DNA of 64,000 nt, taken from the NCBI GenBank assembly GCA_902563095.1, contig CACEWA010000006.1, forward strand, positions 6,713-70,712, in the 5' to 3' direction. The translations under genes were made by a program, and so were the position numbers. Source of the DNA: an uncultured Candidatus Poseidoniales archaeon. Lineage in GTDB: Archaea > Thermoplasmatota > Poseidoniia > Poseidoniales > Poseidoniaceae. Shown piece after piece: positions 22,379 through 60,014 of this stretch. Position 1 is the stretch's first letter. The number at the start of each line of letters is the position of its first letter. The notes beneath the pieces are model-generated. The model worked only from the letters and a program-made list of their open reading frames with translations, searched no databases and was not told the DNA's origin.

Positions 22379-22471
22379 TGCCAACAATTGATGTTATTGT
22401 ACATTAGTTAAAACCAAACATTCAAGACCTCGTTGCGCACGCTCCCAATCACGGATAGTGAGTTGATAATA

Positions 22472-25400: not shown

Positions 25401-27757
25401 AAGTTGCGACTGAATTTGACGGCCTAAATGGAACCAAATGGGAAAAGCGCAAAATTACCGATCCTCATGAAGCATTAAGAGTGAAAATTATCGAAATGCT
25501 AGGTAGCGAAGGTCCTGCTAAAGGAGACCAGATCAATTCGCGATTACCATTCCCTCAGGGTCAGATTGATTCTATTTTGCATGAATTAGAAATTCGAAAT
25601 GTTATCTCAGTAGGATTCTATAGACAGACTGATGATGCAGAATATATTCTCAAGGTTGATGAGCATAAAATCACCGGCGGAGAAGAAGATGTTGTTGAAT
25701 ACCGATGGGTACAAAACATGGTTATGAAGAAATCATTCGAACAATATGGTGACGGTTTCACAGCATTCGACCAACACATATTATTCCAAAAGCAGCAAGA
25801 GATGCTATATCGTGTCGATGGTTTCCGATATGCCGATTGGAAAGATTTGCAACTAGATTCAGATGTTGTAATGGGAAGGTTATTGCATAATCGAATAGGA
25901 TATACTACGCGTAAGAATATTCCAATGCTGCTGGGATTGAAACCAGAGCCATGGCTAGGTGAAATGGAAAAGTTGATTCTCGAAAAAATTCCAATAGGTG
26001 AAAACTTGACGCGCCAGGAAATTCTTATGGATTTCCCAAAGGGTGAAGATCACAAATCTCTTCAAAGAGATCTAAAGAATGCAATCAGTAATTTGGAAAG
26101 GCAACTATGTTTGGTAAAACAATTCGAAGATGTGAGCGGTCGTAGAAGAAGATTGTCTTTGTTCCACAGAGTTATCGATGTCTATAAGCCAATGGATTTC
26201 GAAGATTCACTAGTTGAAGTCATCAAGAGAATGGGTCCAGTAAAGGCCTTCACTCTGAGATATTATGTCTCTAGAAGTGTTGAAGAATTAGCAATAGCAC
26301 TTCGAAATTTGGAGAATAAAGGAAGAATTGCAAAGATTATGGCATTGGTTCCAGAACCAGAGGCCTTCTATGTTCTTCCTGAAGAAGTTGCAAAACTGAG
26401 CACTCAAAGTAGAGAAGATAGAACATTACGTATTCTAACTCAATCTGACCCATATGTTTCTCGATTCATATGGGAAGTTCGCTCAGTTTTGGATAGAGGA
26501 TGGTACCTGCCAGTATTCAAAGGAGTTGACCCGATAGGCAAGGTATTGATGTTTAAGATAAACGATTATCTTGAAATCAAAGATATGCATATTCCATATG
26601 CTTACTTGGATGAATTCTGTGAAGCATTTGAAAAATTGTTGGACAACCACTCTGACCAACTAGTTGATGTTGCAGTATTGTCGCAATTTAACGGAATTCC
26701 TGTAACTGATTTAGAAGAGGACTCACGAATCGCTCTTGAAGGAATTGGTTTCAAATTAGCAGGAGAGAGAATGATTCGTGGAGGTATTGTAGATCCACAA
26801 CCGAGAGAGATTGCTGAAAGAGCTCTTTTCCATAGACATCACCTGCATCAAAATTCTCGTTTGGAAAATGAAATTCAGGCTCTTGAAAGTGTACAAGAAG
26901 TACGTGATGACTTTGGATTGCGTGGACGAGCAGAAGTCTATAGAGTCAGTTTGAAGAATATGGCAAGCGCCAACCAGTTACATCAAGGAATTAACCTCAG
27001 AGGACATCAAGTTTGGGCATCATATGACCACTTCTCTACATTACTAGCAATCCGTGGTGAAGAACCTAATGAGGAATTATTGGACATCCTTGAATTCTTC
27101 GAAAATCATAGTGACCCAAATCTGTTCATGGAAAGGCATGCAATGAAACGAGCTGCATTCAGGAAATTGATTCAGCCATTACTTCGTAGTGGCCACATGG
27201 TCCAAGATTACCGCGGTGGGTTCCGTTCGGTAGCACCTCGTAGAGGCTTAGACCCTGTTATTCTGCGGAGGGAATACCTACGCAGACTAGTTTCAGATTA
27301 CCCAGTTATCACACTAAAACAATTCACAAGATTGGCTGGAACTCCATTTAAGCCTGAAGAATTGAAAGCGATTTTAACCGAATTTGAAGAAGATTCAACG
27401 CTGATTAAAGGATTCCTAATTCAAGACTTGCACGAGGTTTGCTGGGGTAAGAAGGACTTACTTGATGAAGCTAAGAACGTCCCTCCTATTCGGGATTTTG
27501 TCATTCCTCCTTCAGACCCAATAGCCCCTTATTTCGCAGATGTGCTAAAACAAAAATTCGGCTTTGGTAGCGCATACCTAGTTTTCAGGAATGCAGAACC
27601 TGTGGCCGCATTCAAAGCAAATACTCGCGACAAAATAATCGATGTTACCGATTACGAAGGCTCAGAAAAGGGCTGGAGGATTGTGAAAGAATTCGCTTGG
27701 GAACATCAAATGCCACTAAAAACCGAACTTCGTATCGGTGGAAAACGAATGAAGTAA
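22472..27757 (+). CDS. lhr: Lhr-family superfamily-2 helicase with an unusually long C-terminal extension (about 1761 aa from the ATG at 22472; the ORF opens at the TTG at 22433)
   Basis: Helicase motifs are CSPTGSGKTLTAF (I), IIIDEMHSL (II), SSSLEMGIDIG and QRIGRAGH (VI). Lhr-type downstream domains run to about residue 900. The frame then stays open for about 860 more codons, which contain two YcaQ/AlkZ-like signature segments. Confidence 0.85.
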   Translation: MANISYLENPLESEDLYEKLCQPVRNWFKQKFPDFTEPQKLAIPSIMNKDHLLLCSPTGSGKTLTAFLTIIDDLVRHALEGTLEERVYCLYISPIKALANDIQKNLIGPLEEIEKNYLPDRAQGKIRVGLRTGDTPQSERQKMLRKPPHILITTPESMAIAISSPRFQPIVSNVEWIIIDEMHSLVPSKRGVHLALTISLLDTILERPVQRIGISATMEPLETVAEYLVASDDRESRNENQSVKIAKISGARELDLDILLCSPKFSELSVMKVLEMNVEMVADLISAHTTTLVFANTRKMTETLVQKLRPFLGDLVAGHHGSMDKRIRLDVERKLKLGHLRAVVTSSSLEMGIDIGSVDLVIQIGSPGDIATALQRIGRAGHHVGGIPRARFLPTSVDDLIELAALQSAIQTGDMDLLDFPQNCLDVLAQFLIGLVIINERDIDEAFEVVTSTWSYRNLGYDDFIEVLDMLEEERRVWIDWEDNIYGKRGYSRMIYYTNIGTIAPDNSYLVFNAEGSILGQLSSSFVANLRGGDVILLGGSTYRVTNIQGTRVNVNSVTGYRPTVPSWSGEARSRSRELSKALLDLIGHSVNALRRQNDPRVILRDVYGLGEGVSNTIARHLEEHTLDSFQVPDPNRLIVEQIVSGGMPTYLITSCRGRGFNTALGYFMAGLAEQDGIAVLELSFDENGLLIKTSQEVDPGKMYEYFQSNDHMEVIERYIVNTQIFAKRFREIAGRSLIIPKRIGAEEVSPQQFQQRADALLQRHRSIEDSLLIREAKAEIMFGDIDIISLNQFLEASKENIARIVHTKVPVPSRLGMSLYMSTFEDLLSMKTRAFLVKDIDPEILKRLLGNRSLATELSDEQIDEYYSSKVPKPTNSTELLNLMSKGGGLDRKWENPLYASKLKGIEHSTIEGWVRELAKQGKITKLRSTGTAELDDKWFTTYMAEIHGTLGRISEAGGKEMEDIRDLYTKGISYEVATEFDGLNGTKWEKRKITDPHEALRVKIIEMLGSEGPAKGDQINSRLPFPQGQIDSILHELEIRNVISVGFYRQTDDAEYILKVDEHKITGGEEDVVEYRWVQNMVMKKSFEQYGDGFTAFDQHILFQKQQEMLYRVDGFRYADWKDLQLDSDVVMGRLLHNRIGYTTRKNIPMLLGLKPEPWLGEMEKLILEKIPIGENLTRQEILMDFPKGEDHKSLQRDLKNAISNLERQLCLVKQFEDVSGRRRRLSLFHRVIDVYKPMDFEDSLVEVIKRMGPVKAFTLRYYVSRSVEELAIALRNLENKGRIAKIMALVPEPEAFYVLPEEVAKLSTQSREDRTLRILTQSDPYVSRFIWEVRSVLDRGWYLPVFKGVDPIGKVLMFKINDYLEIKDMHIPYAYLDEFCEAFEKLLDNHSDQLVDVAVLSQFNGIPVTDLEEDSRIALEGIGFKLAGERMIRGGIVDPQPREIAERALFHRHHLHQNSRLENEIQALESVQEVRDDFGLRGRAEVYRVSLKNMASANQLHQGINLRGHQVWASYDHFSTLLAIRGEEPNEELLDILEFFENHSDPNLFMERHAMKRAAFRKLIQPLLRSGHMVQDYRGGFRSVAPRRGLDPVILRREYLRRLVSDYPVITLKQFTRLAGTPFKPEELKAILTEFEEDSTLIKGFLIQDLHEVCWGKKDLLDEAKNVPPIRDFVIPPSDPIAPYFADVLKQKFGFGSAYLVFRNAEPVAAFKANTRDKIIDVTDYEGSEKGWRIVKEFAWEHQMPLKTELRIGGKRMK

Positions 27758-27799
27758 ATTACATAACGCAGTTTTGTGTGTTTATTGAGACTATATTCA

Positions 27800-30700
27800 A
27801 TGGGCAATTCTAGTGTTAGATTAAATAACAAGTTTCTTTGTCAGATAATTGTGAACCGCAAGGCTATACTCCTTACTGCCCTCATGCTATTGGTTTCTGC
27901 AAGCCCGTTTGTTACAACATCATCAGCAAATGAAGTACAGGACATTGAAGTTCTAGATACTGCAGTTTATCCTGGAAACAATCACACCTACCATTTACTT
28001 TCTGCTTCTTCATGGAGTGATGCTGCATCGGTTGCCAGAAGCTTAGGCGGATTTCTAGTTACCATAGATGATGCAGAGGAAGATCAGTGGATTTTTGATA
28101 CATTTGCAGTAGATAACGACACAACTAGACATCTGTGGATTGGATTGTCTGATTATCAAGACGAGGGAGATTACCGCTGGCATGATGGAACGCCATTCAC
28201 TTACAGAAACTGGGGAGATGGTCAACCTGGTAGCGGTGATGATGAAGATTATGTCCATATTACTGGAACTAATATGGGGTCGATAGAACCTGCATCTTGG
28301 AATGACTTAGAGGATGACCCTCAGTATTTCCCTGTATACGGTGTTGTCGAGATTGGAGATGGTGCTGATTATGCACTTCGATTTGATGGAGATGATGACC
28401 ACATCATTATTGATGAAGACTTCCCAGATTGGGGAAATACCTTAGAAATTGAAGCATGGGTAAATGTTGCTGATACTGATGGAATACAATTTGTCACAAT
28501 GTTCGGTGATTATGGCTGGGGACTTTACCTAAATGATGGCTATCTAGCTTACTCCAACGAATACTCCCTCTCTAGAAACCCAACATCCAATGTTTCGATT
28601 CAAGAAAATATTTGGACACATATCAAGGTGGTTGTAAACACAGAAACTGGCGGTGAATTCTTCATTGACAACTCTTCTGCAGGACTTATTGATGTTAATG
28701 ACTCACAAATTCCTTCAGGCGACTTCGGCTCAAACGATTGTTTCCAATCAGGCGAAGAATGTGATGAACTATTTATTGGAAGAATGGGTGCTGGTTGTGA
28801 TTGCAACTATTTCCGTGGAATGATGGATGATGTTCGCATTGGCAATTCACTGAACGAATCGTTATGGATGTTTACTGAAGGCGAGGGAGAATCTACAGAA
28901 GATTCAGAAGGTTTGATTGGTATAATTCACGGTGCTGCATGGGTAATGCCTGATGGCACTATAATTGCACAGGCCTTTGAATTAGAGAATGGTGAATACT
29001 ATGATGGATTCAATGCAAATGCAGGAGATACACTCCTATTCTTCATGGATATACCTGAAAATACTCAGTTTGCATCGCTAAACATGTACTCATGGGATTT
29101 CGAATTTGAAGAAGAATATGAAGAAATCGAATACGAAATCTATCTCGCAAAAGATCGTATTCCTTCAGCATGGGACCATGATTATGAAGTTGAAACATAC
29201 TATGGATTGTATGTATACGAATACTTCGAGTGGCCTGAAGAAGGCACTTATTGGATCACTATTTCTTCAAACTATGATATCGAAGAACTAGAGGTGAATG
29301 CGTACTGGGAAGAAGCACCAGAACCACCCGAACTCGATGAAATGACCGAACTGAACGACGGCATTGCTGTCACAGGTCAGAGAATTACTCGAGATAGCGG
29401 AAAATCACTTTATTTCTATGTAGAACTTGAAGATGAATTAGCTGAATTACGTGTAAAAACTTGGGGAGGACCTGGTGATTGTGAATTGCACATAGCATTA
29501 GATGCTCTTCCATACACTGATGATTGGGGATGGATAGAAGATGGATGGTTTGAAGAGAGTGGTGGAAGTAATGGTCGCCAAATTGGTGGTCAGCAAACTT
29601 CAGACCATTCATATAATTCTGGAAATGATGAGACCGTGCAGATTTTCGATGCTCAACCAGGCATATATTACATCATGATGACATCTTACACTGGATGTCG
29701 AGATGTAACAATTCAGGCGGACTTCACATATGCACCAAATAACGTGGACCCAGAATCTGCAATTGAATTGACTGACGGCATCTCCTATGGTCCATTAAGT
29801 GGTTTCGAAGGACTTGACCAATTCTTCTACATCGATGTACCAGTTGGAACAGAAAGATTGGAAGTTGATTTGAACAATGGTGATGGAGAAGCTAAATTGA
29901 TGATGCGCCTCGACCAATACCCCACATGGTCCACTTATGACAAGCACTCAAATGCCCCTGGTGCAGGTGACAAACTTGGTTTCAATGATCCAACTCCTGG
30001 ACGTTGGTATATCCTCATAGGCAGTGAGGAATATTACAGTCGAATCGATATTACAGCATCATTTGAAGATAGATATGTTTGGACATATGATGGTGAACCA
30101 ATCCAATTATTCAATGAGGAAGAAATCGGTGGTATGAGTGCACCTGAAGATGAAGAATTGTATTTCTTCATAGACTTAGAAGATTCAGCTGCTATGGATT
30201 TGACTATCAAGACATGGGGCGGAGAAGGCGACCTTGGTTTATCTGCTGAAACTGAAGAAATCGAGTGGGATGATTTCGAAGAACGCCCAATGGGTAGACA
30301 ATTTGGTGAAACTCAATTTGAATCAGATTGGAGCGGTGCAGATGAAGAGATTTACATCTTCTTTGCTAGTGGAAGAATTGACATCACGATTTACGCTAAC
30401 ACTGAGATTGAAGATATTTCAATAGTTGCGAAGTGGGATGAAATCGACGAACCAGGACCTGGACCCGGTCCTGAACCCGGACCCGAACCTCCAATCGGTG
30501 ACGACATACTTTCTTGTGACGAGTATGTTAAGGTGATTTTCGAAGAACTAGATCTGAATGGAGATGGAGATATCTCCAGTGATGAATCGTTCGATGGTGA
30601 TGATAACGAATTCGATGAGATTGATATTAACAAAGATGGTGTAATCGACAAAACTGAAGCAATCGTTGCGATATGCACCTGTGAAAATGAACTATATGTT

Positions 30701-31261
30701 ACACTAGAGCAAATCAACACAGATGATAGAGGCGAATTTTCTATTGAATTCCTGTCGAGTATTGCATGGAAAAATGAATACGATTTCTTCGAAATGGATT
30801 CAAACAATAATATGCGAGTAGACTATGATGAAGTCGAGGAATATGGAGAAAATTGTGTAACAACCTATGACCCATTGGATAGGGATGGAGATGGAACTCC
30901 TAACGACAAAGATGCATTCCCCGATGACCCTAGTGAAGATAAGGATACAGATGGTGATGGAGTCGGTGATAATGCAGACATTATCGCTTCAGTGGATAAT
31001 GATGTTATCTGGGTTTCTGCCAGTATTCTTGGGCTTATCCTAGCTACATTCTTGGGAATCATGTTTGTTAGATCACGTAGAGGACCAGAGTATGCTTGGG
31101 AAGAATATCAGAAAGACAGGATGTCTGAATCCATGCTTGCTGGCATGGTTAATTCAGGAGACATGCCTCCTTCACAGGAATCTGTACCCCCGGCACTAGA
31201 CTTAGGGCCGCCTGTAGAAAATGTTCCTGAAGATATGACTGTGTCAGATCTCTACGACTGA
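27800..31261 (+). CDS. Giant acidic mosaic surface protein, in order: signal peptide, C-type lectin-like domain, LamG/ConA-like domain, PPC-like beta-sandwich repeats, PG/PE linker, EF-hand pair, TSP3-like Ca-binding repeats, TM anchor, cytoplasmic tail
   Basis: Signal-like KAILLTALMLLVSASPFVTTSSA. C-type lectin strings GGFLVTIDDAEEDQWI, HLWIGLSDYQDEGDYRWHDGTPFTYRNW and WNDLEDD. LamG-like LRFDGDDDHIIID...YFRGMMDDVRIGN. Repeated KTWGG(P/E)GD motifs. EF-hand loops DLNGDGDISSDE and DINKDGVIDKTE. TSP3-like DRDGDGTPNDKDAFPDDPSEDKDTDGDGVGDNAD. TM segment VIWVSASILGLILATFLGIMFV followed by RSRR and an about 80-aa tail. Confidence 0.8.
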   Translation: MGNSSVRLNNKFLCQIIVNRKAILLTALMLLVSASPFVTTSSANEVQDIEVLDTAVYPGNNHTYHLLSASSWSDAASVARSLGGFLVTIDDAEEDQWIFDTFAVDNDTTRHLWIGLSDYQDEGDYRWHDGTPFTYRNWGDGQPGSGDDEDYVHITGTNMGSIEPASWNDLEDDPQYFPVYGVVEIGDGADYALRFDGDDDHIIIDEDFPDWGNTLEIEAWVNVADTDGIQFVTMFGDYGWGLYLNDGYLAYSNEYSLSRNPTSNVSIQENIWTHIKVVVNTETGGEFFIDNSSAGLIDVNDSQIPSGDFGSNDCFQSGEECDELFIGRMGAGCDCNYFRGMMDDVRIGNSLNESLWMFTEGEGESTEDSEGLIGIIHGAAWVMPDGTIIAQAFELENGEYYDGFNANAGDTLLFFMDIPENTQFASLNMYSWDFEFEEEYEEIEYEIYLAKDRIPSAWDHDYEVETYYGLYVYEYFEWPEEGTYWITISSNYDIEELEVNAYWEEAPEPPELDEMTELNDGIAVTGQRITRDSGKSLYFYVELEDELAELRVKTWGGPGDCELHIALDALPYTDDWGWIEDGWFEESGGSNGRQIGGQQTSDHSYNSGNDETVQIFDAQPGIYYIMMTSYTGCRDVTIQADFTYAPNNVDPESAIELTDGISYGPLSGFEGLDQFFYIDVPVGTERLEVDLNNGDGEAKLMMRLDQYPTWSTYDKHSNAPGAGDKLGFNDPTPGRWYILIGSEEYYSRIDITASFEDRYVWTYDGEPIQLFNEEEIGGMSAPEDEELYFFIDLEDSAAMDLTIKTWGGEGDLGLSAETEEIEWDDFEERPMGRQFGETQFESDWSGADEEIYIFFASGRIDITIYANTEIEDISIVAKWDEIDEPGPGPGPEPGPEPPIGDDILSCDEYVKVIFEELDLNGDGDISSDESFDGDDNEFDEIDINKDGVIDKTEAIVAICTCENELYVTLEQINTDDRGEFSIEFLSSIAWKNEYDFFEMDSNNNMRVDYDEVEEYGENCVTTYDPLDRDGDGTPNDKDAFPDDPSEDKDTDGDGVGDNADIIASVDNDVIWVSASILGLILATFLGIMFVRSRRGPEYAWEEYQKDRMSESMLAGMVNSGDMPPSQESVPPALDLGPPVENVPEDMTVSDLYD
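30452..30493 (+). repeat. Low-complexity Pro-Gly/Pro-Glu linker coding repeat (PGPGPGPEPGPEPP) inside the surface protein gene
   Basis: The sequence cca gga cct gga ccc ggt cct gaa ccc gga ccc gaa cct cca reads in frame. It separates the PPC-like repeats from the EF-hand region. Confidence 0.6.
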
Positions 31262-37595: not shown

Positions 37596-38243
37596 TTAAT
37601 TGAATGAAAGATGGCCTCTAACGCCATCCCAGTGCTTCTCGAAATCTAATTTTAATTCGCCAGACATATGAGGTCCGGCTATTACCAATGTTTCATATTC
37701 TCCACCTTCACCATCGATATTAAATCTATATTTCGTAGCATTCAGAGTTAGTTTTTGCAAAGATTCTTCGTTCAAAACGCACCCTAGCCATTCACCACCA
37801 AGCCCTTCAGTTGAAACGCCAGTAATCATAACCTTGAAACCATTAGCCACAAGATTTGACATATGTGACTCACTTGATTGATGCCACAATGGAGTGAAGG
37901 ACTTGATATTCAATTCTTCAGCCATTCTTTCCAAACGTGTTTTTTGATAATCTGAGCGTAACGCTCCGGAAACAATCCCATCGATATCCAATTCGGAAAG
38001 AGCAAACTTGAGATCTTCAACTTCCTTTTCTGCTTCACCCTGAGTCTTGACAGGTAACCATTCGCAACCACATAGTTCTGCTTGAAATTTAACAAGTTTT
38101 GTACCTGGTATTTGAAACATCCAAGAGTCTTCCCCTTCGACAATCATTGTCACCAAGTGAGTAACTTCCCATCCCTTGCATTGGGCCCACCAAATTGCGG
38201 CACTACTATCCTTGCCGCCACTAGAGAGAACTGCTACCTTCAC
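37596..38243 (-). CDS. dph6: PP-loop ATPase of the MJ0570/Dph6 family (diphthine-ammonia ligase)
   Basis: It has the PP-loop VAVLSSGGKDS, plus SGALRSDYQKTRLE and GEGGEYETLV. I infer a GTG start at 38243 (VKVAVLSSGGKDS). The ATG at 38336 would add 31 aa and overlap psmA. Confidence 0.75.
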   Translation of the reverse strand: MKVAVLSSGGKDSSAAIWWAQCKGWEVTHLVTMIVEGEDSWMFQIPGTKLVKFQAELCGCEWLPVKTQGEAEKEVEDLKFALSELDIDGIVSGALRSDYQKTRLERMAEELNIKSFTPLWHQSSESHMSNLVANGFKVMITGVSTEGLGGEWLGCVLNEESLQKLTLNATKYRFNIDGEGGEYETLVIAGPHMSGELKLDFEKHWDGVRGHLSFN

Positions 38244-38294
38244 ATGTGTCGCATCCCGCCAAGGTTGATAAGACCCCGACCCGGACACCCACCA

Positions 38295-38300
38295 GAGGTG
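38295..38300 (+). promoter_or_regulatory. Shine-Dalgarno-like GAGGTG upstream of the psmA TTG start
   Basis: GAGGTG is followed by a 6-nt spacer and then the TTG at 38307. Translation from there gives MQPSGRGYDHGITTFSPDGRLFQVEYA, matching the canonical archaeal proteasome-alpha N-terminus. Confidence 0.5.
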
Positions 38301-38306
38301 GACACT

Positions 38307-39029
38307 TTGCAGCCGAGCGGAAGAGGATATGACCATGGTATTACCACATTCAGCCCAGACGGAAGATTGTTTCAGGTAGAATACGCTAGAGAAAGCGTGA
38401 AGAGAGGAACTACAACCGCTGGACTGAAATTCAGAGATGGGGTAGTTTTAGTGTGTGACAAGAGAATTGCTAGTCGCCTAATAATCCCTGAATCAATTGA
38501 AAAGATGTTCAAGATTGATGGTCACGTTGGTATTGCTACCAGTGGACTTGTTGCCGATGCACGCCAACTAGTTGCTCGTGCTCGTGTTGAAGCTCAGATA
38601 AACAGAATCACATATGCGGCTACAGTTCCTGTCGATATACTAACAAAGAAAATTTGTGATTTCAAACAATCATTCACCCAGTACGGAGGTTCTAGACCAT
38701 TTGGAACTGCTCTACTAATCGGAGGAGTTGACGATAATGGAATTCATCTATTCGAAACAGACCCATCTGGAGCATACCAGTCTTACCACGCTGGCGCAAT
38801 CGGCAGTGGAAGAAACACTGTTATCGACTACTTTGAGAAGAATTGGAAGGAGAACTTGACTCTTAACGCTGCTATGAAACTCGGTCTAGAAGCTCTAAGG
38901 AATGCTAACGACCAAGAGTTGAATCGTGATGCTGTAGAAGTCTCAGTGATCGATTCAGAAGGTTACAGAATTCTCGACAGAGATGAAGTAAACAAGCAAA
39001 TTGACCGTCTCAAGCCTCTTGAGGAGTGA
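38307..39029 (+). CDS. psmA: Proteasome alpha subunit
   Basis: Strings YDHGITTFSPDGRLFQVEYA, GIATSGLVADAR and SRPFGTALLIGG. The TTG start is inferred from N-terminal conservation plus the SD. The ORF-maximal start at 38082 runs antisense through dph6. Confidence 0.9.
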   Translation: MQPSGRGYDHGITTFSPDGRLFQVEYARESVKRGTTTAGLKFRDGVVLVCDKRIASRLIIPESIEKMFKIDGHVGIATSGLVADARQLVARARVEAQINRITYAATVPVDILTKKICDFKQSFTQYGGSRPFGTALLIGGVDDNGIHLFETDPSGAYQSYHAGAIGSGRNTVIDYFEKNWKENLTLNAAMKLGLEALRNANDQELNRDAVEVSVIDSEGYRILDRDEVNKQIDRLKPLEE

Positions 39030-50697: not shown

Positions 50698-51129
50698 ATG
50701 GGCAGATTGTTGGGTATATTTGCCTCGAATGGTGGTGTCCCCAAACTTCCAGTTGAGTCTGCGCAAATAGATATCAACGGAATAGTTGGTGACGCTTGTA
50801 ACAACAAAAAACACCACGGCGGTCCAATGAAGGCAATTTGTGTTTTAGAGAATGAGCTCTTGGTCAAGTTACAATCCGAAGGTCATCCAATCCATCCCGG
50901 TACAACCGGCGAAAACATACTCGTTGAGGGTTACAATTTGGAGTTCGGGAAAGTGTTTGATGTTGGTGAGGTTCGACTTGAGGTTGTATCTGATGCCACA
51001 CCTTGTTGGAAAATAGCAGACTCATTCACTGAAGGAGATTATAGTCGAATGTCCAATGAAAAATATCCTGGCGACACAAGATGGTATTGCAAGGTTCTGA
51101 ATACCGGTGTAATCAGTATATCCGGTTGA
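50698..51129 (+). CDS. MOSC-domain protein
   Basis: 143 aa with HHGGPMKAICVL, PGTTGENILVEG and ATPCWKI (conserved Cys). Confidence 0.7.
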   Translation: MGRLLGIFASNGGVPKLPVESAQIDINGIVGDACNNKKHHGGPMKAICVLENELLVKLQSEGHPIHPGTTGENILVEGYNLEFGKVFDVGEVRLEVVSDATPCWKIADSFTEGDYSRMSNEKYPGDTRWYCKVLNTGVISISG

Positions 51130-52858
51130 GCTGGTAATCGGTCAACTCTCTTAATGCCCTGAGTGCAGGATTATCAGAAATACGATCTAGACAGTCGTGT
51201 GCTTTACGATGGTAAGATTCAGCCTTTACTTTAGCATATTCGATTGAGCCTAAATCATGCAATGCCTGATGGCCTCTAGCAACTTGCTCCGCAGTAACAT
51301 CCTCACCCTTTCCTAGAACTGCAAGTAAATCATCCTTTGACTGTGAAGGAGGTTGTCTCAGTGCGTGAATTACCATCAAGGTTCTCTTTCCTTGAGCTAC
51401 ATCACTACCACTAGGTTTTCCTAAAGTATCTGAATCAGATAAAACATCGATTAAATCGTCCATCAACTGGAAACACAATCCTAGTGCAAGACCCCAGTCA
51501 TGCATACACTGAATCACATCTTCATCGGCGCCTGCAAGGTGTGAACCAACTTCGGCACAAGTAAGGAACATTGCAGCAGTCTTACCGTGAATCATCTCAA
51601 TGTACTCTTCTTCAGAAACAACTTCACGATTCTCAAATTCGATATCGAGTTGTTGACCCTCACTACACTTGCGGACCATTCTACCTATTCGCTTGACTAA
51701 GAATGGCAATAGTTCTGGCTCAATACCTTCTGCAACAGCCATTGCCTCGAATGCAATCGCTAGCATAGCATCTCCTGCATTAATCGCAGTTGGTAAATCA
51801 TAAGCAATATGCACTGCAGGTCGGCCACGGCGAACATCATCATCATCCATAATGTCATCATGGACTAGAGTGAAATTGTGAATAATTTCTATCGCTGCTC
51901 CAACATCGAGTAAACCTGAATGAGTATCGCCTACGGCTTTAGCAACTAACCATGGTAATGTTGCTCTTAGTCGCTTTCCGCCACCCTCTAAAAGATGCAT
52001 CATAGCACCAGACAATCGAGTTAATTTGCTGTGGGTCAAAGCACGCTCAATTCGACTTTCAACCAATTCTTTGACTTCAGAAATGCTGGTTGACAAATCC
52101 GCTCCAATTGCATTTGGCAACATATGCGAAACATCACCCATGTCATGAATCAAATCATCTGGCTTTACGCAACCTGGCCTCCACCAATCATCATTCATTA
52201 TTCTAGCAGCAATACAGCGGAACCATGGAGCGATCACATTTTCTGGGTCATCTGCCACTAACATTTCTTCCAAATCCTCTTGAGAAACCCATTTGATTTC
52301 ACTAACTTCATTCGGATTCGGGTTTACATCAACATCAGTATGAATTACTAAGCAATGGTCTACCTCTCTCTCGATCCAATCTTCATCTTGGCGTGCTTGA
52401 TATCGCATTTTTGTTACAAATTCAAACTTCTCCAAGGGGACCTGTGAAGGATGAATCCCCAATTCCTGTTCCAACTTCCTAACAGCTGCTCTCTTTACCC
52501 CAAGGGCATCTTTCAATTCCATTTCTTCTTCTGAATGGAGTGGATGTGAACAGCAAGAATTGGCCCATACATTAGGGAATGTTATCTTGTGAGATGCCCT
52601 TCTCTGGAGCAACAAACGACCAGTTGAATCGAAAAGCATGACGCTGAATGCTCGGTGGATTACACCATCACCGTAGTGACTATCAAGCTTAGAAATCGGG
52701 CCGACAACCTCGTCACTTTCCGTAACTTGTATCACGGCTTCAGCCATCAATGACTCTTGTACTGAATCTGAACCTGCCAGTGCATCCGAGGCTTCAGCCT
52801 CCATTTGCATGGTCGGAACATCCTCAATGCCATATCCTGACATACACTCACCGTACAA
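51113..52858 (-). CDS. Fusion protein: type-1 isopentenyl-diphosphate isomerase (Nudix fold) at the N-terminus, trans-polyprenyl (geranylgeranyl) diphosphate synthase at the C-terminus
   Basis: 581 aa. The N-terminal half has HRAFSVMLFDSTGRLLLQRRASHKITFPNVWANSCCSHP and the EREVDH Glu cluster (IDI-1). The C-terminal half has the first Asp-rich motif LVHDDIMDDDDVRRGRP and the second, FQLMDDLIDV. Confidence 0.85.
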   Translation of the reverse strand: MYGECMSGYGIEDVPTMQMEAEASDALAGSDSVQESLMAEAVIQVTESDEVVGPISKLDSHYGDGVIHRAFSVMLFDSTGRLLLQRRASHKITFPNVWANSCCSHPLHSEEEMELKDALGVKRAAVRKLEQELGIHPSQVPLEKFEFVTKMRYQARQDEDWIEREVDHCLVIHTDVDVNPNPNEVSEIKWVSQEDLEEMLVADDPENVIAPWFRCIAARIMNDDWWRPGCVKPDDLIHDMGDVSHMLPNAIGADLSTSISEVKELVESRIERALTHSKLTRLSGAMMHLLEGGGKRLRATLPWLVAKAVGDTHSGLLDVGAAIEIIHNFTLVHDDIMDDDDVRRGRPAVHIAYDLPTAINAGDAMLAIAFEAMAVAEGIEPELLPFLVKRIGRMVRKCSEGQQLDIEFENREVVSEEEYIEMIHGKTAAMFLTCAEVGSHLAGADEDVIQCMHDWGLALGLCFQLMDDLIDVLSDSDTLGKPSGSDVAQGKRTLMVIHALRQPPSQSKDDLLAVLGKGEDVTAEQVARGHQALHDLGSIEYAKVKAESYHRKAHDCLDRISDNPALRALRELTDYQLNRIY

Positions 52859-53667: not shown

Positions 53668-53720
53668 TTCCTACTAATGTGTGCATTGGATTTACATGGG
53701 AGTCTGGATACGGCACTAAC

Positions 53721-54059
53721 ATGACCGAGTCACCAACAGTGGATGAGTTCATCCGACACATGCAAACTGAATTAGATGCATGTGAAGATATTGTTGACAA
53801 AAAAGAGAGACAAAACCGACAATGGCAAATCGAGTCGTCACTGCTTTTGGCAATTGATTTCGCAAGCAAATTCAAGGAATTAGCAAAACTCGGACAAAAC
53901 CCAATTCAAATTGTTCAGGCATTGGCAACCCAAGACCCTGATTCAGCAAAAATTGCCAAACAGGTTATCTCTATAGCAACTGGATTGTGCCCACATTGTG
54001 GCGCAACTATGGAAGCAGATCTCGATTTCTGTCCTAGTTGCGGAAATTATGTGGAATGA
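53721..54059 (+). CDS. Hypothetical protein with C-terminal zinc ribbon
   Basis: About 112 aa from the ATG at 53721 (the ORF opens at 53679). It is helical and ends in CPHC-x10-CPSC. Its stop abuts the stop of tpt1 with 0 nt between them. Confidence 0.45.
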   Translation: MTESPTVDEFIRHMQTELDACEDIVDKKERQNRQWQIESSLLLAIDFASKFKELAKLGQNPIQIVQALATQDPDSAKIAKQVISIATGLCPHCGATMEADLDFCPSCGNYVE

Positions 54060-54852: not shown

Positions 54853-55992
54853 ATGCGAGCAGTAATTTCAGACTACTTGCGCACGCCTTTCCACAGAGCA
54901 CACAAGGGCGACCTAGCGTCAGTTAGGCCTGAAGACATGTTGGATGCGACTGTTCGAAGTATAATTGAAAGAAATAATATTGATGTAAATGACATTGAAG
55001 ACTTAATGTTAGGATGCGCATATCCTGAAGGAGTTCAAGGATTGAACCTTGGAAGAATCGCCACCTACCTACCTCAACTCCCCCACTCCATTCCTGGAAT
55101 GACAACAAATCGTTTGTGTGGCTCTTCAATGCAAGTTGCTCATACTGCAGCCGGCTCGATAAAAATGGGCTCAGGTGAACTTTTCTTGACAGCAGGTGTT
55201 GAAACTATGTCTTTAGTGAAAAGGGGCGGATGGAATAGAGACCTACACCCAGGAATAGAATCGAAATTCCCAGACGCATATATCTCGATGGGCTTGACTG
55301 CAGAAAACCTTGCTAATGATTATTCAATATCTCGAACAGAGCAAGAAGAATTTGCCCTGCACAGCCACAATAAGGCTCTGAGTGCACAAAGTAATGGTCT
55401 GCTTACTAAGGAAATTGTGGCAGTTAAATCTGAAGAAAAGGTTGTAGAAATCGACGGATGTATAAGAGAAACTTCTGTTGAAAAAATGTCTAAACTACCT
55501 CCAGCATTCATAGAAAGTGGAACTGTTACAGCCGCAACATCCTCACCATTAACAGATGGTGCAGCTTGCAATCTAATTTGCTCGGAAAAGTATGCTCAAG
55601 AGAATAGTATTGCTAGCCTTGCTGAGATTGTCTCCACTGCAGTTGTTGGAGTTCCACCTCACATTATGGGAATTGGGCCAGTTGAATCTTCAAAGAAGGC
55701 CCTAGCCAGAGCTGGCATCTCTATGGATGACGTAGATGTGATTGAGTTGAATGAAGCTTTTAGCGCTCAGTCAATCGCTGTATTAAGAGACTTAGATCTC
55801 GAATCTGATGATAAAAGACTCAATATTGATGGTGGAGCATTAGCAATCGGCCATCCATTAGGTGCTAGTGGAGCACGAATACTCGGCAAGGCCGCGTCTT
55901 TACTGAATAGAATTGATGGCGAATATGCATTAGCATCAATGTGTATAGGGGGAGGAATGGGAATTGCTACAGTTTTGCGTAAGTATGAATGA
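54853..55992 (+). CDS. Thiolase (acetyl-CoA C-acetyl/acyltransferase), bacterial FadA/AtoB-like
   Basis: 379 aa. The active-site Cys lies in NRLCGSSMQ. Other strings are NEAFSAQ, GGALAIGHPLGASGARIL and CIGGGMGIA. Confidence 0.9.
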   Translation: MRAVISDYLRTPFHRAHKGDLASVRPEDMLDATVRSIIERNNIDVNDIEDLMLGCAYPEGVQGLNLGRIATYLPQLPHSIPGMTTNRLCGSSMQVAHTAAGSIKMGSGELFLTAGVETMSLVKRGGWNRDLHPGIESKFPDAYISMGLTAENLANDYSISRTEQEEFALHSHNKALSAQSNGLLTKEIVAVKSEEKVVEIDGCIRETSVEKMSKLPPAFIESGTVTAATSSPLTDGAACNLICSEKYAQENSIASLAEIVSTAVVGVPPHIMGIGPVESSKKALARAGISMDDVDVIELNEAFSAQSIAVLRDLDLESDDKRLNIDGGALAIGHPLGASGARILGKAASLLNRIDGEYALASMCIGGGMGIATVLRKYE

Positions 55993-56027
55993 TAACCTTC
56001 ATCATATATCGCATTTGTACCTAAAAT

Positions 56028-57029
56028 ATGGGTATCCGAAAGGGGCGTAAAGAAGCGTTCGAAAATCTAAGCATTAGCGAAGAAGGAGACTGCCCACGCT
56101 GTGGGGGTGAAAGCCAGCCATCTTCTCTACCGGGTTACCTAAGTTGTGCTAGATGCGGTTATGAATGGAAAGACCCAGACCATGTGGCACAAAAAAGAGG
56201 GCCGCCAGAAACTTATCGCCGTGATGCAGAATTGATTGAAGAGTTCAAACAAGAAATGCAAAGTGGTGATTTGAGCAACGTATTGGGTATTGAAAAGGGA
56301 CTTTCTAGCGAGCAAGAGGCTTCTTTACAACGCTTGGAAGATAAGTGGATGAGTGGCATGAGTGGTCATTTCAATGCTGCTGCTGAAGAAAGGAAACCAC
56401 TAATGATCTCATTTGATGATAATGACAATTTAGTCGACACTACAGTTGGAAGTATAACCATTGTAGCGAATGGATTCGACGGTGGCGAAGAAATACGATT
56501 GGAATATCCTGGCCTCGGCACCGAATTCTATGCTTATGATGAGGCAAGCGAAACTGGATGGCGAAGAGGACGAACTGCAGAAGATACTGCACGCTCAATC
56601 ACAAATGTCATCAACAGATTTTCTAAATTGGTTTATGCCAATCAGGATGGAAGTATGATTTTACTAGAATTACGTGGCGAAGAACTCAATCCTGATTCGC
56701 TGGTAATATTCGTTGATGACCCTGGCGGCACAGATATAGTAGCTGAAAAGTCTGGAGTATCTATGGACCCAAGAGATGTTCGAATGGTTGAAGATTACAA
56801 AGTCGTAGTTGAAATTTGTTTAGCAGATGGAATTATTTCACCTTCTGAAGACCAAATGCTCTGGGCAATGCGTCAACAATTGGGAATCGATGATTATCTG
56901 CACGTTCAGATTGTTCAGCAAATTTTCGGAGACCATGCTCTCAAAGAATGCACAATATGTGGGGAGATGGCCGAACTTTATGCCGACTATGCAGCATGGT
57001 ACTGTCAATCATGTGAAAATTGGTGTTAG
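56028..57029 (+). CDS. Hypothetical acidic protein with a zinc ribbon at each terminus
   Basis: 333 aa with CPRC-x14-CARC near the N-terminus and CTIC-x14-CQSC at the C-terminus. The helical segment ICLADGIISPSEDQMLWAMRQQLGIDD is vaguely TerB-like. It lies 97 nt upstream of, and co-directional with, the actin-like gene. Confidence 0.5.
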   Translation: MGIRKGRKEAFENLSISEEGDCPRCGGESQPSSLPGYLSCARCGYEWKDPDHVAQKRGPPETYRRDAELIEEFKQEMQSGDLSNVLGIEKGLSSEQEASLQRLEDKWMSGMSGHFNAAAEERKPLMISFDDNDNLVDTTVGSITIVANGFDGGEEIRLEYPGLGTEFYAYDEASETGWRRGRTAEDTARSITNVINRFSKLVYANQDGSMILLELRGEELNPDSLVIFVDDPGGTDIVAEKSGVSMDPRDVRMVEDYKVVVEICLADGIISPSEDQMLWAMRQQLGIDDYLHVQIVQQIFGDHALKECTICGEMAELYADYAAWYCQSCENWC

Positions 57030-57036
57030 TACATCG

Positions 57037-57053
57037 AAATATAGATTATATTT
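57037..57053. promoter_or_regulatory. AT-rich palindrome AAATATA-GAT-TATATTT; candidate TATA/promoter element for the actin-like gene
   Basis: Read directly from the sequence. It lies 74-90 nt upstream of the ATG at 57127, just after the upstream gene's stop. Confidence 0.25.
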
Positions 57054-57126
57054 TAGAAGTATCAGTAAAGCGTAACATAGGCATTCTTCATAAGGTGAGA
57101 ACCAATCGCCCAAATAGGCGAGTATT

Positions 57127-58152
57127 ATGGCTGAAGAAGTACTATACATCGGAATTGACCTTGGAACCTTTCGCTCTGTTATGGTGTCCAGCGATAGTCA
57201 CGAAGAAGAAGAACTTACAGTAATTGGGACACCAAAGGACCCAATTGCACGAAATTTCCTGAAGAGAGATGTTCTATTCGGTAATGAAGCATTGAAGAAC
57301 AGATTAGCATTGAATCTATTCAGGCCTCTAGAACTTGGTGTAATTAAGGATACACCTGAAGACCGAGAATTCATTGCACATTTCATTACTCACCTGATTG
57401 GTTTGTCTGATCCTGAAGACTACGATAGAGTAGTTGCAGTTATTGGAGCACCTGCTGAAGCAAGTCACGTCGACAAGACTTCAATCTTCGATGCTGCTGC
57501 AGGCTCTGTGAACGCTGCTATGATCATCTCCGAACCTTTCGCAGTTGCTTATGCGCTAGACATGATTGAGCACACACTAGTAATCGACATTGGTGCAGGA
57601 ACTACTGACCTTTGCCGTGTATACGGTACAATCCCTGGACCAGGAGACCAGATGCACACAGGATATGCTGGTGACTACGTAGATAACCAAATCATCGTTG
57701 AAGTACAAAAGAAGTACAACGGTGCTCAAATCACTAAGGATATGGCTCGCAGATGGAAAGAGCAGTATTCCTTCGTATCAACTTCGACCCCTGATGACCC
57801 GATCATGGTCGACTTCTCAATTGAAGGTAAAGCAATGACTCTTGACATCACAGATTGTATACAATCAGCTTGTGAATCAATCGTTGACCCAATCGTTGAA
57901 AATGTTAAGCAATTGATTGCAGGTTCAAACCCTGAATTCCATGATGAATTCCGCAGGAACATGGTTCTAGCAGGTGGAGGCTCTGCTATCAAAGGACTTG
58001 GAGCACTTATCGAGCGCCGTCTATCTGATATGGGCGAAGTCAATGTCCATGTTGTAGATGACCCAGTCAGATTAGGAGCAATGGGTGGCCTAAGGCTAGC
58101 TATGGAAGTTCCAGAAGATATGTGGAAGAACTTGACTCTAGCATCTCGCTGA
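57127..58152 (+). CDS. Actin-fold filament protein, MamK-like
   Basis: 341 aa. Actin-fold motifs are YIGIDLGTFRS (phosphate 1), LVIDIGAGTTDLCRV (phosphate 2) and MVLAGGGSAIKGLG (adenosine). MamK-like strings are GTIPGPGDQ, WKEQYSFV and DDPVRLGAMGGLRLAMEVPEDMWKNL. Confidence 0.8.
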   Translation: MAEEVLYIGIDLGTFRSVMVSSDSHEEEELTVIGTPKDPIARNFLKRDVLFGNEALKNRLALNLFRPLELGVIKDTPEDREFIAHFITHLIGLSDPEDYDRVVAVIGAPAEASHVDKTSIFDAAAGSVNAAMIISEPFAVAYALDMIEHTLVIDIGAGTTDLCRVYGTIPGPGDQMHTGYAGDYVDNQIIVEVQKKYNGAQITKDMARRWKEQYSFVSTSTPDDPIMVDFSIEGKAMTLDITDCIQSACESIVDPIVENVKQLIAGSNPEFHDEFRRNMVLAGGGSAIKGLGALIERRLSDMGEVNVHVVDDPVRLGAMGGLRLAMEVPEDMWKNLTLASR

Positions 58153-58154
58153 GT

Positions 58155-58727
58155 TCACTCTTCTTCAGTTCCACCTAGAACTAAAGGTGAATCACAGTGA
58201 GGGCATCTGTCCTCTCGAGAAAGTAACATTGGATTTACTGCTAGCACTGCCAAACATGTCGGGCAGGCTGCTAACATTTCGTTTGCAGGTAACTTGTGCC
58301 CTTCATCATAGATTGAATATCCACTGTAGCCCATTTTGTAAACAGGATGGAAATGTATTCTGATGAATCTAATAGAGGAAAATATTGCATATCCTACAAT
58401 TAATGAGAATACGAGGCTAGTTATAGAACCAGAAAGCATCGTTATAACGAAGCTAAATAAGATGAAACAGAAAATTATGGTTAGTGCAGCGATAATCATT
58501 GGAACAAACCAATATGCCCATGCTGCTCTACTGCGATAACCAGCCCATACAGATAAGAAAAACAAACCTGGAATTAATGCCAAATTACCAAATATTTGGT
58601 AAACGAAAAATGTCACTATCAATGAATCAACCACGAAAACGAATGAAGTGCGACTATGAAGGGCGTCAATAGGATTAGAATGCTGAGGCCTCGAGCCTGC
58701 GAGAATCATCTCATCCGCATCTGACAT
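58155..58727 (-). CDS. Hypothetical 4-TM membrane protein with C-terminal zinc ribbon
   Basis: 190 aa with four hydrophobic helices followed by CPTC-x16-CPHC. It is convergent with the actin-like gene across a 2-nt gap. Confidence 0.5.
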   Translation of the reverse strand: MSDADEMILAGSRPQHSNPIDALHSRTSFVFVVDSLIVTFFVYQIFGNLALIPGLFFLSVWAGYRSRAAWAYWFVPMIIAALTIIFCFILFSFVITMLSGSITSLVFSLIVGYAIFSSIRFIRIHFHPVYKMGYSGYSIYDEGHKLPANEMLAACPTCLAVLAVNPMLLSREDRCPHCDSPLVLGGTEEE

Positions 58728-58832
58728 AGATTACACGAATCGATATTTGCAATTGAAACAACCGGTCATCTGTGAATATGAATGTGCATTTTCCAGCGAA
58801 GCCGTATTGAAGCAGGGACTTTTCCCCGTATC

Positions 58833-60014
58833 ATGCGTGACACCGATGTTGAGGTTCGCGGCAGTTCACTCAGTGGACGTCACGTTTTACTCGGAGTAAC
58901 CGGTGGAATCGCTGCAGTTGATACGGTTAGGTTAGCTAGGGAATTGCGACGACATGGTGCTGAAGTTTCAGTCATCATGACACAGTCTGCACAGGAGATA
59001 ATCACTCCAATGGCTGTAAGATGGGCTTCACAGGGAGAAGTAATTACAGATTGGGACGGTGATTTATCTGCTCTATCTGGATTTGATGCTATTCTAGTAA
59101 CTCCTGCTACACGCAATTTGATTGCATCATTCATTCATGGATTGATGAATGGGCCACTGTTGATGGCCCTTTCTGCAGCAAGAGGTAGAGGATGTCCAAT
59201 AATGATGGTCCCCTCAATGCACAATGACCTAGCAAATGACCCAGTTACTGAAGATTTAGTTGTTCAATGTGTAAAACATGGGGTGCAGGTAATATGGGGT
59301 GCCGAAGAAGAAGGCAAAAGAAAAACTGCTAATCATGAAGAAATCGTAGCGAGATTAGGCAATCTAGTCAACAAGAATTCTACTTCAGTAGTAGTCACAT
59401 TAGGTGCAACTCGTAGCGCAATTGATGATGTTAGGTACGTGCAAAATACCTCAAGTGGAAAGACTGGATACAAGATTGCCGACGACCTATATCGTCATGG
59501 TATGGATGTCACATGCGTCAGTGGGGTGACAACTATACAGAAACCAGAATGGCTACCACTCGACATCAAATGTCCAGATCCAGACCTAATGTTGGATGAA
59601 CTAAAGGCGTTAACAAAGGATAGAATCGATGTCTGGGTTCATGCTGCTGCTGTATTAGACTACATTATCCCAGAACCTATTGAAGGTAAGATCGCATCGC
59701 TCCAAGGAGACTTGGATATTCAATTAAAAGAAGGTGCAAAGCATATCAGTGAATTGAAAGATTTGTGTAAGGGAGCAGTTAGAATTGGATTCAAGTTAGA
59801 GAGTGGAATCAAACAGAAAGACCTAGTTCATCGAGCCCACGCTCAAATTCAAACTGCTGGAATGACTGCAACTATAGCTAACAGAATGGAAGATTACGGC
59901 AAAGAAGGGATGCCAAGAGGTTGGTTAGTCGATTCACACGGCGCTCATTTTATTCTAGAAACTGAGAATGACATGTGTAGTGCAATTCGTTCAGTAATCG
60001 AAAACAACAGGTGA
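58833..60014 (+). CDS. coaBC: Bifunctional phosphopantothenoylcysteine decarboxylase / phosphopantothenate-cysteine ligase (CoaBC)
   Basis: The flavoprotein domain has VLLGVTGGIAAVDTVRLARELRRHGAEV. The CoaB domain has VVVTLGATRSAIDDVRYVQNTSSGKTG. The ATG at 58833 is the likely start; the ORF opens at 58782. Confidence 0.85.
   Translation: MRDTDVEVRGSSLSGRHVLLGVTGGIAAVDTVRLARELRRHGAEVSVIMTQSAQEIITPMAVRWASQGEVITDWDGDLSALSGFDAILVTPATRNLIASFIHGLMNGPLLMALSAARGRGCPIMMVPSMHNDLANDPVTEDLVVQCVKHGVQVIWGAEEEGKRKTANHEEIVARLGNLVNKNSTSVVVTLGATRSAIDDVRYVQNTSSGKTGYKIADDLYRHGMDVTCVSGVTTIQKPEWLPLDIKCPDPDLMLDELKALTKDRIDVWVHAAAVLDYIIPEPIEGKIASLQGDLDIQLKEGAKHISELKDLCKGAVRIGFKLESGIKQKDLVHRAHAQIQTAGMTATIANRMEDYGKEGMPRGWLVDSHGAHFILETENDMCSAIRSVIENNR

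Follow-up and report, generated by a model that had tools for sequence, protein, structure and literature searches.

What does a MamK-type actin do in an uncultured marine archaeon, and which of the genes around it work with it? This question is raised by the window analyzed here, a stretch of 64,000 nucleotides (nt) of contig CACEWA010000006.1 from a member of the Candidatus Poseidoniales (Marine Group II, MGII). The gene at 57127..58152 on the plus strand encodes a 341-amino-acid (aa) actin-fold ATPase. It is preceded, with a gap of 97 nt, by a co-directional gene for a 333-aa protein with two zinc ribbons (56028..57029, +), here called ZnR333, and is followed after 2 nt by the convergent gene of a 190-aa protein, TM190 (58155..58727, −). 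An earlier inspection of the letters alone (the sequence-only reading) had proposed that the three genes form a membrane-tethered filament module, and an ORF check reproduced the three open reading frames (ORFs), strands and gaps that it had described. Comparison of related genomes gave a different picture, as the conserved unit is a two-gene ZnR333-actin cassette, not three genes. The best-supported reading, to which we assign a probability of roughly 55%, is that this cassette encodes an ATP-driven, MamK-like filament together with its cognate partner, ZnR333, acting as an adaptor or a regulator.

When the actin was scored against the NCBIfam profiles, the MamK family model (NF040964) ranked highest with 358.2 bits (E 3.9e-107) over profile positions 1-331 of 335, followed by BeeR with 214, MreB with 94, salactin with 61, FtsA with 30 and the Hsp70-type models with less than 25 bits. 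The cutoffs of the MreB models were widely missed (94 versus 293 bits for PRK13927, 83 versus 366 for TIGR00904 and 63 versus 515 for MreBH), and the scores for the two haloarchaeal actins were also under their NCBIfam cutoffs (61 versus 400 for salactin, 29.8 versus 35 for volactin). In Pfam, which has no separate MamK model, the top match was MreB_Mbl (PF06723, 92.8 bits), and it outscored Salactin, which reached 53.8 bits against a gathering score of 27.1. A HMMER search of the PDB sequences gave MamK at E 2e-73, BeeR at 2e-43, MreB at 7e-15 and actin at about 1e-4. The same order was obtained from structure, since Foldseek, using an AF2 model of the protein (pTM 0.79), returned MamK at 1e-30 (TM score 0.80-0.84), BeeR at 1e-26 and MreB at best at 2e-18. 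The NCBIfam, PDB and Foldseek rankings thus agree with the sequence-only reading that the protein is closer to MamK than to MreB, ParM, FtsA or Hsp70. Where a public annotation of this protein exists, it is 'rod shape-determining protein MreB', and judged by the profile scores this name is a mislabel.

The curated cutoff of the MamK model is 400 bits, and the protein falls below it. Pfam scans of all major ORFs in the 64-kilobase (kb) window detected no magnetosome-type genes (CDF proteins MamB/M, MamE/O-type protease, LemA/MamQ, TPR protein MamA), in line with the earlier remark that none lie nearby. For these two reasons the product of 57127..58152 is a MamK-type actin in the broad sense and not a magnetosome MamK.

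Inspection of the alignment to PDB 5ljw and 5jyg, made with HMMER, showed that residues 2-336 of the window actin pair with residues 8-341 of MamK with only two indels of 1-2 residues. Because the match is full-length and near-colinear, with an E value of 2e-73, it is far beyond chance, and the four MamK strings that the sequence-only reading had quoted align as quoted. The ATPase motifs are kept in the window actin and in five other Poseidoniales sequences, namely the phosphate-1 DxG, the catalytic Glu, the Asp of DIGAGTTD and the adenosine GGGS; the counterparts of MamK E143 and D161 here are E136 and D154. The actin-fold ATPase is complete, as had been claimed. The fold begins at residue 6 and has no N- or C-terminal extension, unlike BeeR and salactin. 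Neither a hydrophobic segment of transmembrane (TM) grade nor a terminal extension for membrane anchoring was found in the window actin, which is acidic (isoelectric point, pI, 4.62). From the near-colinear homology to MamK and the intact catalytic residues, the protein is predicted to bind and hydrolyze ATP and to polymerize into filaments.

Alternatively, the protein might be a non-polymerizing ATPase, chaperone- or kinase-like, that resembles MamK only by the shared actin fold. The poor modelling of subdomain IB (residues 32-74, with a pLDDT confidence of about 30) and the score under the MamK cutoff would be compatible with such an enzyme. We consider it hardly credible, because the match to MamK covers the full length in near-colinear fashion, the next best matches, BeeR and MreB, are polymers as well, and the matches to Hsp70/HscA and EutJ are marginal (33 bits or less), with no substrate-binding or lid domains in the protein.

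The meaning of a score below 400 bits was evaluated by calibrating the MamK model with other proteins. MamK of AMB-1 scored 543, a Nitrospira protein 429 and a Gemmatimonadota protein 412 bits, all above the cutoff, and below it were a bacterial fusion protein (394), proteins of Acidobacteriota (393), Verrucomicrobiota (371), ANME-2 (368) and MGIIb (367.5), and a second Poseidoniales paralogue (330). All calibration proteins reached only 190-222 bits on the BeeR model. The MamK scores form a continuum around the cutoff, and MamK-type proteins are widespread in non-magnetotactic bacteria and occur also in ANME-2 archaea.

A distance-based neighbor-joining tree of 86 actin domains (334 columns, 100 bootstraps, MreB as outgroup) placed the MGII proteins in one clade with 100% support, joined by the second paralogue with 87% and then by the bacterial fusion clade with 60%. 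BeeR formed a separate clade (79%) outside the one that holds the MGII protein. The MGII clade is nested in a broad MamK-type radiation, is not grouped with the branch of AMB-1-type MamK, and the deep nodes of the tree have less than 50% support. The phylogeny suggested by the sequence-only reading accordingly separates the protein from the MreB outgroup and from BeeR and puts it among the MamK-type proteins, with its exact position in that radiation poorly supported. Pairwise identity to the window actin was 38% for AMB-1 MamK and 43% for Nitrospira MamK, compared with 41% between these two and about 27% for MreB. A Magnetospirillum mutant can be rescued by MamK orthologues with identities of 35-95% (PMC10653835), and the 38-43% of the window actin falls inside this span of functional orthologues.

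In an exhaustive search through 1.84 billion representative proteins, 1,265 relatives of the actin were detected, 148 of them at E of 1e-30 or better. The closest relatives outside the Poseidoniales are bacterial proteins of 523-1232 aa with 45-49% identity (loci L087, 8001-10340, and L088, 10001-12364; proteins P0244-P0259), in which a MamK-type actin forms the C-terminus and a long, disordered, low-complexity linker separates it from a conserved coiled coil at the N-terminus. Genes for Ddl, UvrC and a Por_Secre_tail protein on the same contigs point to a bacterium, possibly of the FCB group. The second Poseidoniales paralogue (P0249, 335 aa, 45% identical to the window actin) is encoded outside this window (loci L084-L086, 6001-8381, for example GCA_965657185.1 CBFHNJ010000012.1), between a gene for a 950-aa S8 peptidase before it and a gene for a 426-aa coiled-coil protein (P0433, in a cluster of 675 members) after it. 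In an ANME-2 metagenome-assembled genome (MAG; JAHYIS010000018.1, L090, 6001-12925), the next gene, 26 nt after that of the MamK-type actin, encodes a 1,941-aa repeat protein rich in E, K and L, with 19% Glu, 14.5% Lys, no Pfam domain and a recurring ENFDELxSFFxxLKK motif. A contig of Gemmatimonadota type (L092, 6001-7697) has the actin gene followed by one for a 178-aa coiled-coil protein. On a contig of Nitrospira type (L091, 8001-9050), the 429-bit protein, named 'MamK family actin-like protein', is encoded among Amidase_3, Usp, RtcB and PhaC genes; since this is not a magnetosome cluster, the NCBIfam model also takes in proteins other than magnetosome MamK. MamK-type actins outside magnetotactic bacteria are typically accompanied by a lineage-specific partner, adjoining or fused, which is usually a coiled coil.

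Gene order in related genomes was compared by tBLASTn, using ten window proteins against the loci. Among the species-representative genomes 250 encode a relative of the actin, and the linkage sample comprised 83 of at least 250 loci, consisting of the best 80 genome loci (91-99% actin identity) and three Thalassarchaeaceae contigs. ZnR333 was directly upstream and co-directional in 80 of the 80 genome loci, with 65-98% identity, and in all three contigs, giving 83/83. The linkage covers both Poseidoniales families, Poseidoniaceae and Thalassarchaeaceae. The surroundings of the pair are variable. The gene upstream of it is a thiolase of the window type in 17 loci and another gene in 58, and the region downstream of the actin contains, according to lineage, TM190 and CoaBC, or transaldolase, transketolase and OPT, or 2-5 kb of inserted genes. 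The ZnR333-actin pair survives these rearrangements immediately on both sides. The expectation of the sequence-only reading that both zinc-ribbon neighbors stay beside the actin in related genomes consequently held for ZnR333 and failed for TM190, whose place is inconstant.

Two loci of the sample are assigned to bacteria, NZEQ01000006.1 ('Verrucomicrobiales bacterium ARS100'; L053) and CAXRAI010000015.1 ('Salinimicrobium sp.'; L070). Both have the full archaeal synteny from isopentenyl-phosphate kinase (IPK), ZnR126 and Tpt1 to ZnR333 and the actin, with 91-92% actin identity, and almost certainly derive from Poseidoniales and were mis-binned into bacterial MAGs.

Synteny can also be inherited passively, and the counts bear on a second explanation, in which the actin, without a partner, would form a general cytoskeleton for cell shape or scaffolding, and ZnR333 would be a functionally unrelated neighbor retained with it. 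This role is the one that the public MreB annotation implies. A core task in cell biology would fit the identity of the actin, which is 79-99% across the Poseidoniales (79-95% to proteins of MAGs named Candidatus Poseidoniales, Poseidoniaceae and Thalassarchaeaceae). The pair lies among archaeal housekeeping genes in the 83 loci, separate promoters are probable (see below) and the background synteny is high. The persistence of the pair when both flanks change, and the equally narrow taxonomic range of ZnR333, are not what this explanation leads one to expect. Nor does the actin look like a shape-determining MreB. It misses the MreB cutoffs by a wide margin, it is devoid of a membrane-anchoring extension or TM segment, the Pfam scans found no MreC, MreD or RodZ in the 64-kb window, and archaea are not known to have peptidoglycan. 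We regard the lone-actin explanation as unlikely, but worth keeping in view.

ZnR333 itself has no family match above threshold in Pfam, NCBIfam or PADLOC. We collected 306 homologues, and the named ones among the 120 listed all come from MAGs of Poseidoniales or unclassified Euryarchaeota, so ZnR333 is an orphan family restricted to the Poseidoniales order. The listed homologues are annotated as 'hypothetical' or, occasionally, as 'ribosomal protein L37AE/L43A' owing to the N-terminal ribbon. The protein is acidic (pI 4.40, 62 D+E versus 31 K+R) in every region (pI 4.0-5.2). As the sequence-only reading had it, a zinc ribbon with the same x14 spacing stands at each end, and none of the eight Cys varies among 22 homologues of 65-89% identity. 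The N-terminal ribbon (56091..56156, +; C22-x2-C25-x14-C40-x2-C43; pLDDT about 80) is of the eL43/L37Ae type; it has a weak Pfam match to Zn_ribbon_IS1595, and the family profile matches archaeal L37Ae chains over residues 8-58 with E 1.6e-3. The C-terminal ribbon (56949..57014, +; C308-x2-C311-x14-C326-x2-C329) is modelled as three-stranded.

Residues 97-135 (EASLQRLEDKWMSGMSGHFNAAAEERKPLMISFDDNDNL; 56316..56432, +) are the best conserved stretch of ZnR333, with a mean column identity of 0.86 and 17 of 39 positions invariant, and at the same time the least confidently modelled one (pLDDT about 46). Because high conservation together with low pLDDT is the usual signature of folding upon binding, this segment is a candidate motif that would fold on binding a partner. 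The following alpha/beta core (residues 136-250) and three helices (251-303) are confidently modelled (56433..56936, +; pLDDT 84-90). The helices include an invariant DGIISPSEDQ and bear a weak TerB-like signature (TerB E 0.005, residues 259-289). In BFVD the core is similar to a domain found in phage tail tubular, sheath and major tail proteins, with E down to 6e-6 at a root-mean-square deviation of about 4 Å over some 105-135 columns, which speaks for a structural or binding domain and not an enzyme. The AF2 model of the whole protein (pLDDT 73) shows an eL43-like ribbon at 20-48, poorly ordered helices at 62-108 and the second ribbon at 304-330, and gave no PDB fold match at E<1e-3.

The spacer between the two genes measures 83-135 nt across the 83 loci, with a mode of 97, and contains two conserved elements. 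Just past the ZnR333 stop codon (57038..57046) is a palindrome-like element with the consensus TCTATAGA, read as aaTATAGAt in the window. Its TATAG core is at least 90% conserved across the 83 loci and is not a general motif of the window, and it may serve as a site for a regulator or as a TATA-like element. The second element, TTCATAAGGTGA (57087..57098, +), is located about 40 nt before the actin start codon; within this TTCATAA(GGTGAG) element TTCATAA is at least 90% conserved across the loci, and the window holds no other exact copy. A TTCAT core is also present about 30 nt before the ZnR333 start codon (55998..56002, +; context cTTCATcatatat), suggesting a promoter and a leaderless or short-leader transcript. 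Among the window genes, 12 of 49 have TTCAT at -60..-25, often near -30, compared with 4.2 expected (p ~5e-4), and TTCAT may be part of the TATA-like promoter signal of this organism, with many leaderless transcripts. By this pattern TTCATAAGGTGA is probably the promoter core of the actin, and ZnR333 and the actin probably each have their own promoter, which would permit more actin than ZnR333 to be made.

Two further candidates in this region were rejected. A long-range RNA pairing of 57085-57098 with the SPSED-coding 56838-56851, 93% complementary here, is a chance match, as only 6-12 of 14 positions pair elsewhere, without compensation. A hairpin TCGCC-N6-GGCGA upstream of the actin ATG was not conserved when the alignment was inspected.

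A palindrome between a putative adaptor gene and an actin gene recalls ParMRC, and a DNA segregation system of that kind was considered, with ZnR333 as a DNA-binding adaptor that sits on the TCTATAGA palindrome or another site and couples DNA to the filament. The two-gene layout fits, zinc ribbons can bind nucleic acid, the N-terminal ribbon of ZnR333 resembles the rRNA-binding eL43, and the archaeal salactin has been linked to DNA partitioning (PMC10746226). The charge of ZnR333, acidic in all regions, is unfavorable for DNA binding. The region 55000-59500 contains one 8-bp palindrome only, not enriched in the window, and no iterons or tandem or centromere-like arrays, the locus belongs to the core chromosome and not to a plasmid or mobile element, and the actin is of MamK type, not of ParM/Alp type. 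Such a system is very improbable here.

The third gene of the proposed module was examined in the same loci. TM190 has four hydrophobic segments of TM length and a C-terminal zinc ribbon (58194..58265, −; C155-x2-C158-x16-C175-x2-C178) whose four Cys are invariant in 41 orthologues, so the description of a four-TM protein ending in CxxC-x16-CxxC was accurate; it matches no family in Pfam, NCBIfam or PADLOC. TM190 adjoins the actin in 35 loci and lies displaced from it, 1.9-5.3 kb away, in 9; in 24 others, among them all Poseidonia-type loci, no TM190 occurs within at least 3 kb, and 15 loci were not assessable. It is located 30-242 nt from coaBC, the gene of phosphopantothenoylcysteine synthetase/decarboxylase, in all 38 loci where both genes are present, including those where TM190 no longer adjoins the actin. 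In the window coaBC occupies 58782-60014 (+) and forms a divergent pair with TM190. TM190 also diverges far faster than the actin (27-95% versus 81-99% identity). Because the proximity to coaBC is constant and the adjacency to the actin is not, TM190 belongs with coaBC, and it is most likely a conserved neighbor of the cassette, a bystander tied to coaBC. The constant divergent pairing suggests either that the two genes share a promoter region or that TM190 has a function connected with CoA metabolism or membrane biogenesis.

These results weigh against the three-gene, membrane-tethered module, in which TM190 would anchor the filament or ZnR333 to the membrane. TM190 abuts the 3′ end of the actin gene (0-12 nt) in both Poseidoniaceae and Thalassarchaeaceae, so this arrangement is probably ancestral, and its conserved cytoplasmic zinc-ribbon tail shares the zinc-ribbon theme with ZnR333. 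The convergent orientation excludes co-transcription with the actin, and the displaced and missing copies, the 38/38 link to coaBC and the fast divergence all count against TM190 as a third member. Nothing beyond the adjacency of TM190 in some lineages supports tethering to a membrane, and we judge the module improbable.

We come back to the reading of ZnR333 as cognate partner of a MamK-like filament. It is supported by the 83/83 linkage despite changed flanks, by the common taxonomic restriction of the two proteins and by the two conserved elements of the spacer. By analogy, it would also agree with the mamJ-mamK gene pair and with the lineage-specific partners of other MamK-type actins. In the mechanism that we envisage, the actin would assemble with ATP, and ZnR333 would couple the filament to a cargo or a cellular site, or regulate filament assembly; the conserved unstructured segment or the ribbons would make the putative contact with the filament, and the cargo would be something other than a magnetosome.

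Several observations weigh against this reading. The actin does not reach the curated MamK cutoff, and its subdomain IB is poorly modelled. The synteny of Poseidoniales is generally high, as the IPK-ZnR126-Tpt1 block is kept in 66-71 of the 80 loci, and 80 of the 83 loci come from close relatives with 91-99% identical actins; for both reasons 83/83 overstates the number of independent observations, and the adjacency is weaker evidence than the count implies. With apparently separate promoters, ZnR333 and the actin may not form an operon. Finally, a Rosetta-stone link was sought and rejected. Comparison of the ZnR333 family with the coiled-coil N-domain of the bacterial fusions and with the 426-aa partner of the paralogue by hhalign gave probabilities of 0.2% or less, and a ZnR333 HMM had no match in the ORFs of the relatives' loci (L084-L092). 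As far as sequence comparison goes, other MamK-type actins have coiled-coil partners that bear no relation to ZnR333, and these lend no Rosetta-stone support.

The rest of the window is that of an archaeal chromosome. It carries genes for proteasome alpha, SBDS, the exosome subunits Rrp4, Rrp41 and Rrp42, EF-2, S7 and SRP54, and further TiaS, diphthamide synthase, Lhr, IPK, Tpt1 and CoaBC. This gene content, together with near-identical loci in Poseidoniales MAGs, identifies the host genome as archaeal, namely Marine Group II. Rfam and tRNA scans of the window found no rRNA or tRNA, and PADLOC gave only noise (E>0.003) with respect to a link with anti-phage defense.

Other genes of the window deserve mention. 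ZnR126, a 126-aa protein with a C-terminal zinc ribbon of DUF7575 type (53679-54059, +), is encoded between IPK and Tpt1, a position kept in 68 of 80 loci, and is the third small zinc-ribbon protein less than 5 kb from the ZnR333-actin cassette. Adjoining IPK, a single ORF of 581 aa (51113-52858, −) fuses a NUDIX domain, like that of type 1 IDI, to a polyprenyl synthase of GGPP type, resulting in a compact gene cluster for isoprenoid lipids. The Lhr-type helicase (22433-27757, +) is 1,774 aa long, with a long C-terminal region without Pfam match, and the 1,161-aa product of the next ORF (27776-31261, +) carries domains of the C-type lectin and PPC (pre-peptidase C-terminal) families and is a likely surface protein. 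The mechanical ORF of proteasome alpha (37596-38336, −) has a TTG start and overlaps the diphthamide synthase gene (38082-39029, +) by about 250 nt; its domain starts at residue 83, and the real start is probably more downstream.

In the surface ocean, Marine Group II archaea rank with the most abundant archaea; they are also the most abundant planktonic Euryarchaeota, they are uncultured, and to our knowledge their cell biology is essentially unexplored. What is new here is a MamK-type actin cassette with a new partner family, fixed in this abundant order. Through it the MamK branch of the actin superfamily reaches into the Thermoplasmatota, and together with BeeR and salactin the cassette adds to the evidence for MamK-like filament functions unrelated to magnetosomes. 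That each lineage has its own partner, be it a zinc-ribbon protein, a coiled coil or the 1,941-aa repeat protein, suggests a general adaptor-plus-filament design. With heterologous expression, ZnR333 and the actin become a concrete, testable system for archaeal cell biologists. A more specific proposal, which we offer tentatively as a possibility that we do not favor, is that ZnR333 and the actin make up a new archaeal cytomotive machine that positions a cargo other than a magnetosome, for instance the nucleoid, a membrane domain or a storage body. If this were true, Marine Group II would run two separate MamK-type cytoskeletal systems, counting the paralogue and its coiled-coil partner, and cargo or organelle positioning would be an ancient, general function of MamK-like filaments, with magnetosome alignment as one specialization. 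A full-text search found no literature that links MamK, MreB, actin or cytoskeleton to Marine Group II or Poseidoniales, and the ZnR333-actin pair is absent from the main text of a survey of lineage-specific archaeal protein families (PMC9258230).

We finally compared the cassette with known systems. MamK, which assembles with ATP into parallel, non-staggered double-helical filaments, is the best match to the window actin by profile, sequence and fold (PDB 5jyg, 5ljv, 5ljw). The two proteins are alike in length and in a domain layout without extensions, and the window actin keeps all nucleotide-binding motifs along with the catalytic residues E136 and D154 (E143 and D161 in MamK). They differ in that the host here is archaeal and the window has no magnetosome cluster and no homologues of MamJ, MamY or McaA/B. 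The gene pair resembles mamJ-mamK, where mamJ is immediately upstream of mamK (PMC10653835), in that the partner gene is upstream and co-directional and its product is acidic and lineage-specific. However, MamJ is repetitive and largely disordered, whereas ZnR333 is mostly globular, has two ribbons and bears no relation to MamJ in sequence or fold.

BeeR, the three-stranded tubular actin of Verrucomicrobiota (PDB 8r2n; NF053558), is the second-best match and a MamK relative in non-magnetotactic organisms. Its hallmark is a disordered N-terminal domain, and MamK relatives are known in non-magnetotactic bacteria (PMC11929497). The window actin differs from it in scoring 214 bits against a BeeR cutoff of 530 and in having no such N-terminal domain, which is 30-50 residues long in BeeR. 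Salactin of Halobacterium (PF25229/NF053533) and volactin of Haloferax (PF25216) are, like the window protein, archaeal actin homologues, but the window actin has no long charged N-terminal tail, belongs to Thermoplasmatota and not Methanotecta, and has a MamK score about six times its salactin score. Salactin has been characterized in haloarchaea and placed nearest to MamK among the actin subfamilies (PMC10746226). The view of the sequence-only reading that no MamK-type cytoskeleton has been characterized in archaea therefore stands for MGII and Poseidoniales and has to be qualified for archaea as a whole.

We know of no archaea with the peptidoglycan machinery that MreB guides, and MreB, which has the actin fold in common with the window protein, differs from it in this respect, in its scores, in the identity of about 27% and in its MreCD/RodZ context. 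The ParM/ParR/parC and crenactin/arcadin systems share with the ZnR333-actin cassette the logic of an actin-like filament gene beside a small coupling or regulating partner, and in both of them a short motif of the partner binds the actin. They have no sequence relation to the cassette, which is distinguished from them by the lack of a repeat array, by its housekeeping chromosome and by its acidic zinc-ribbon partner.

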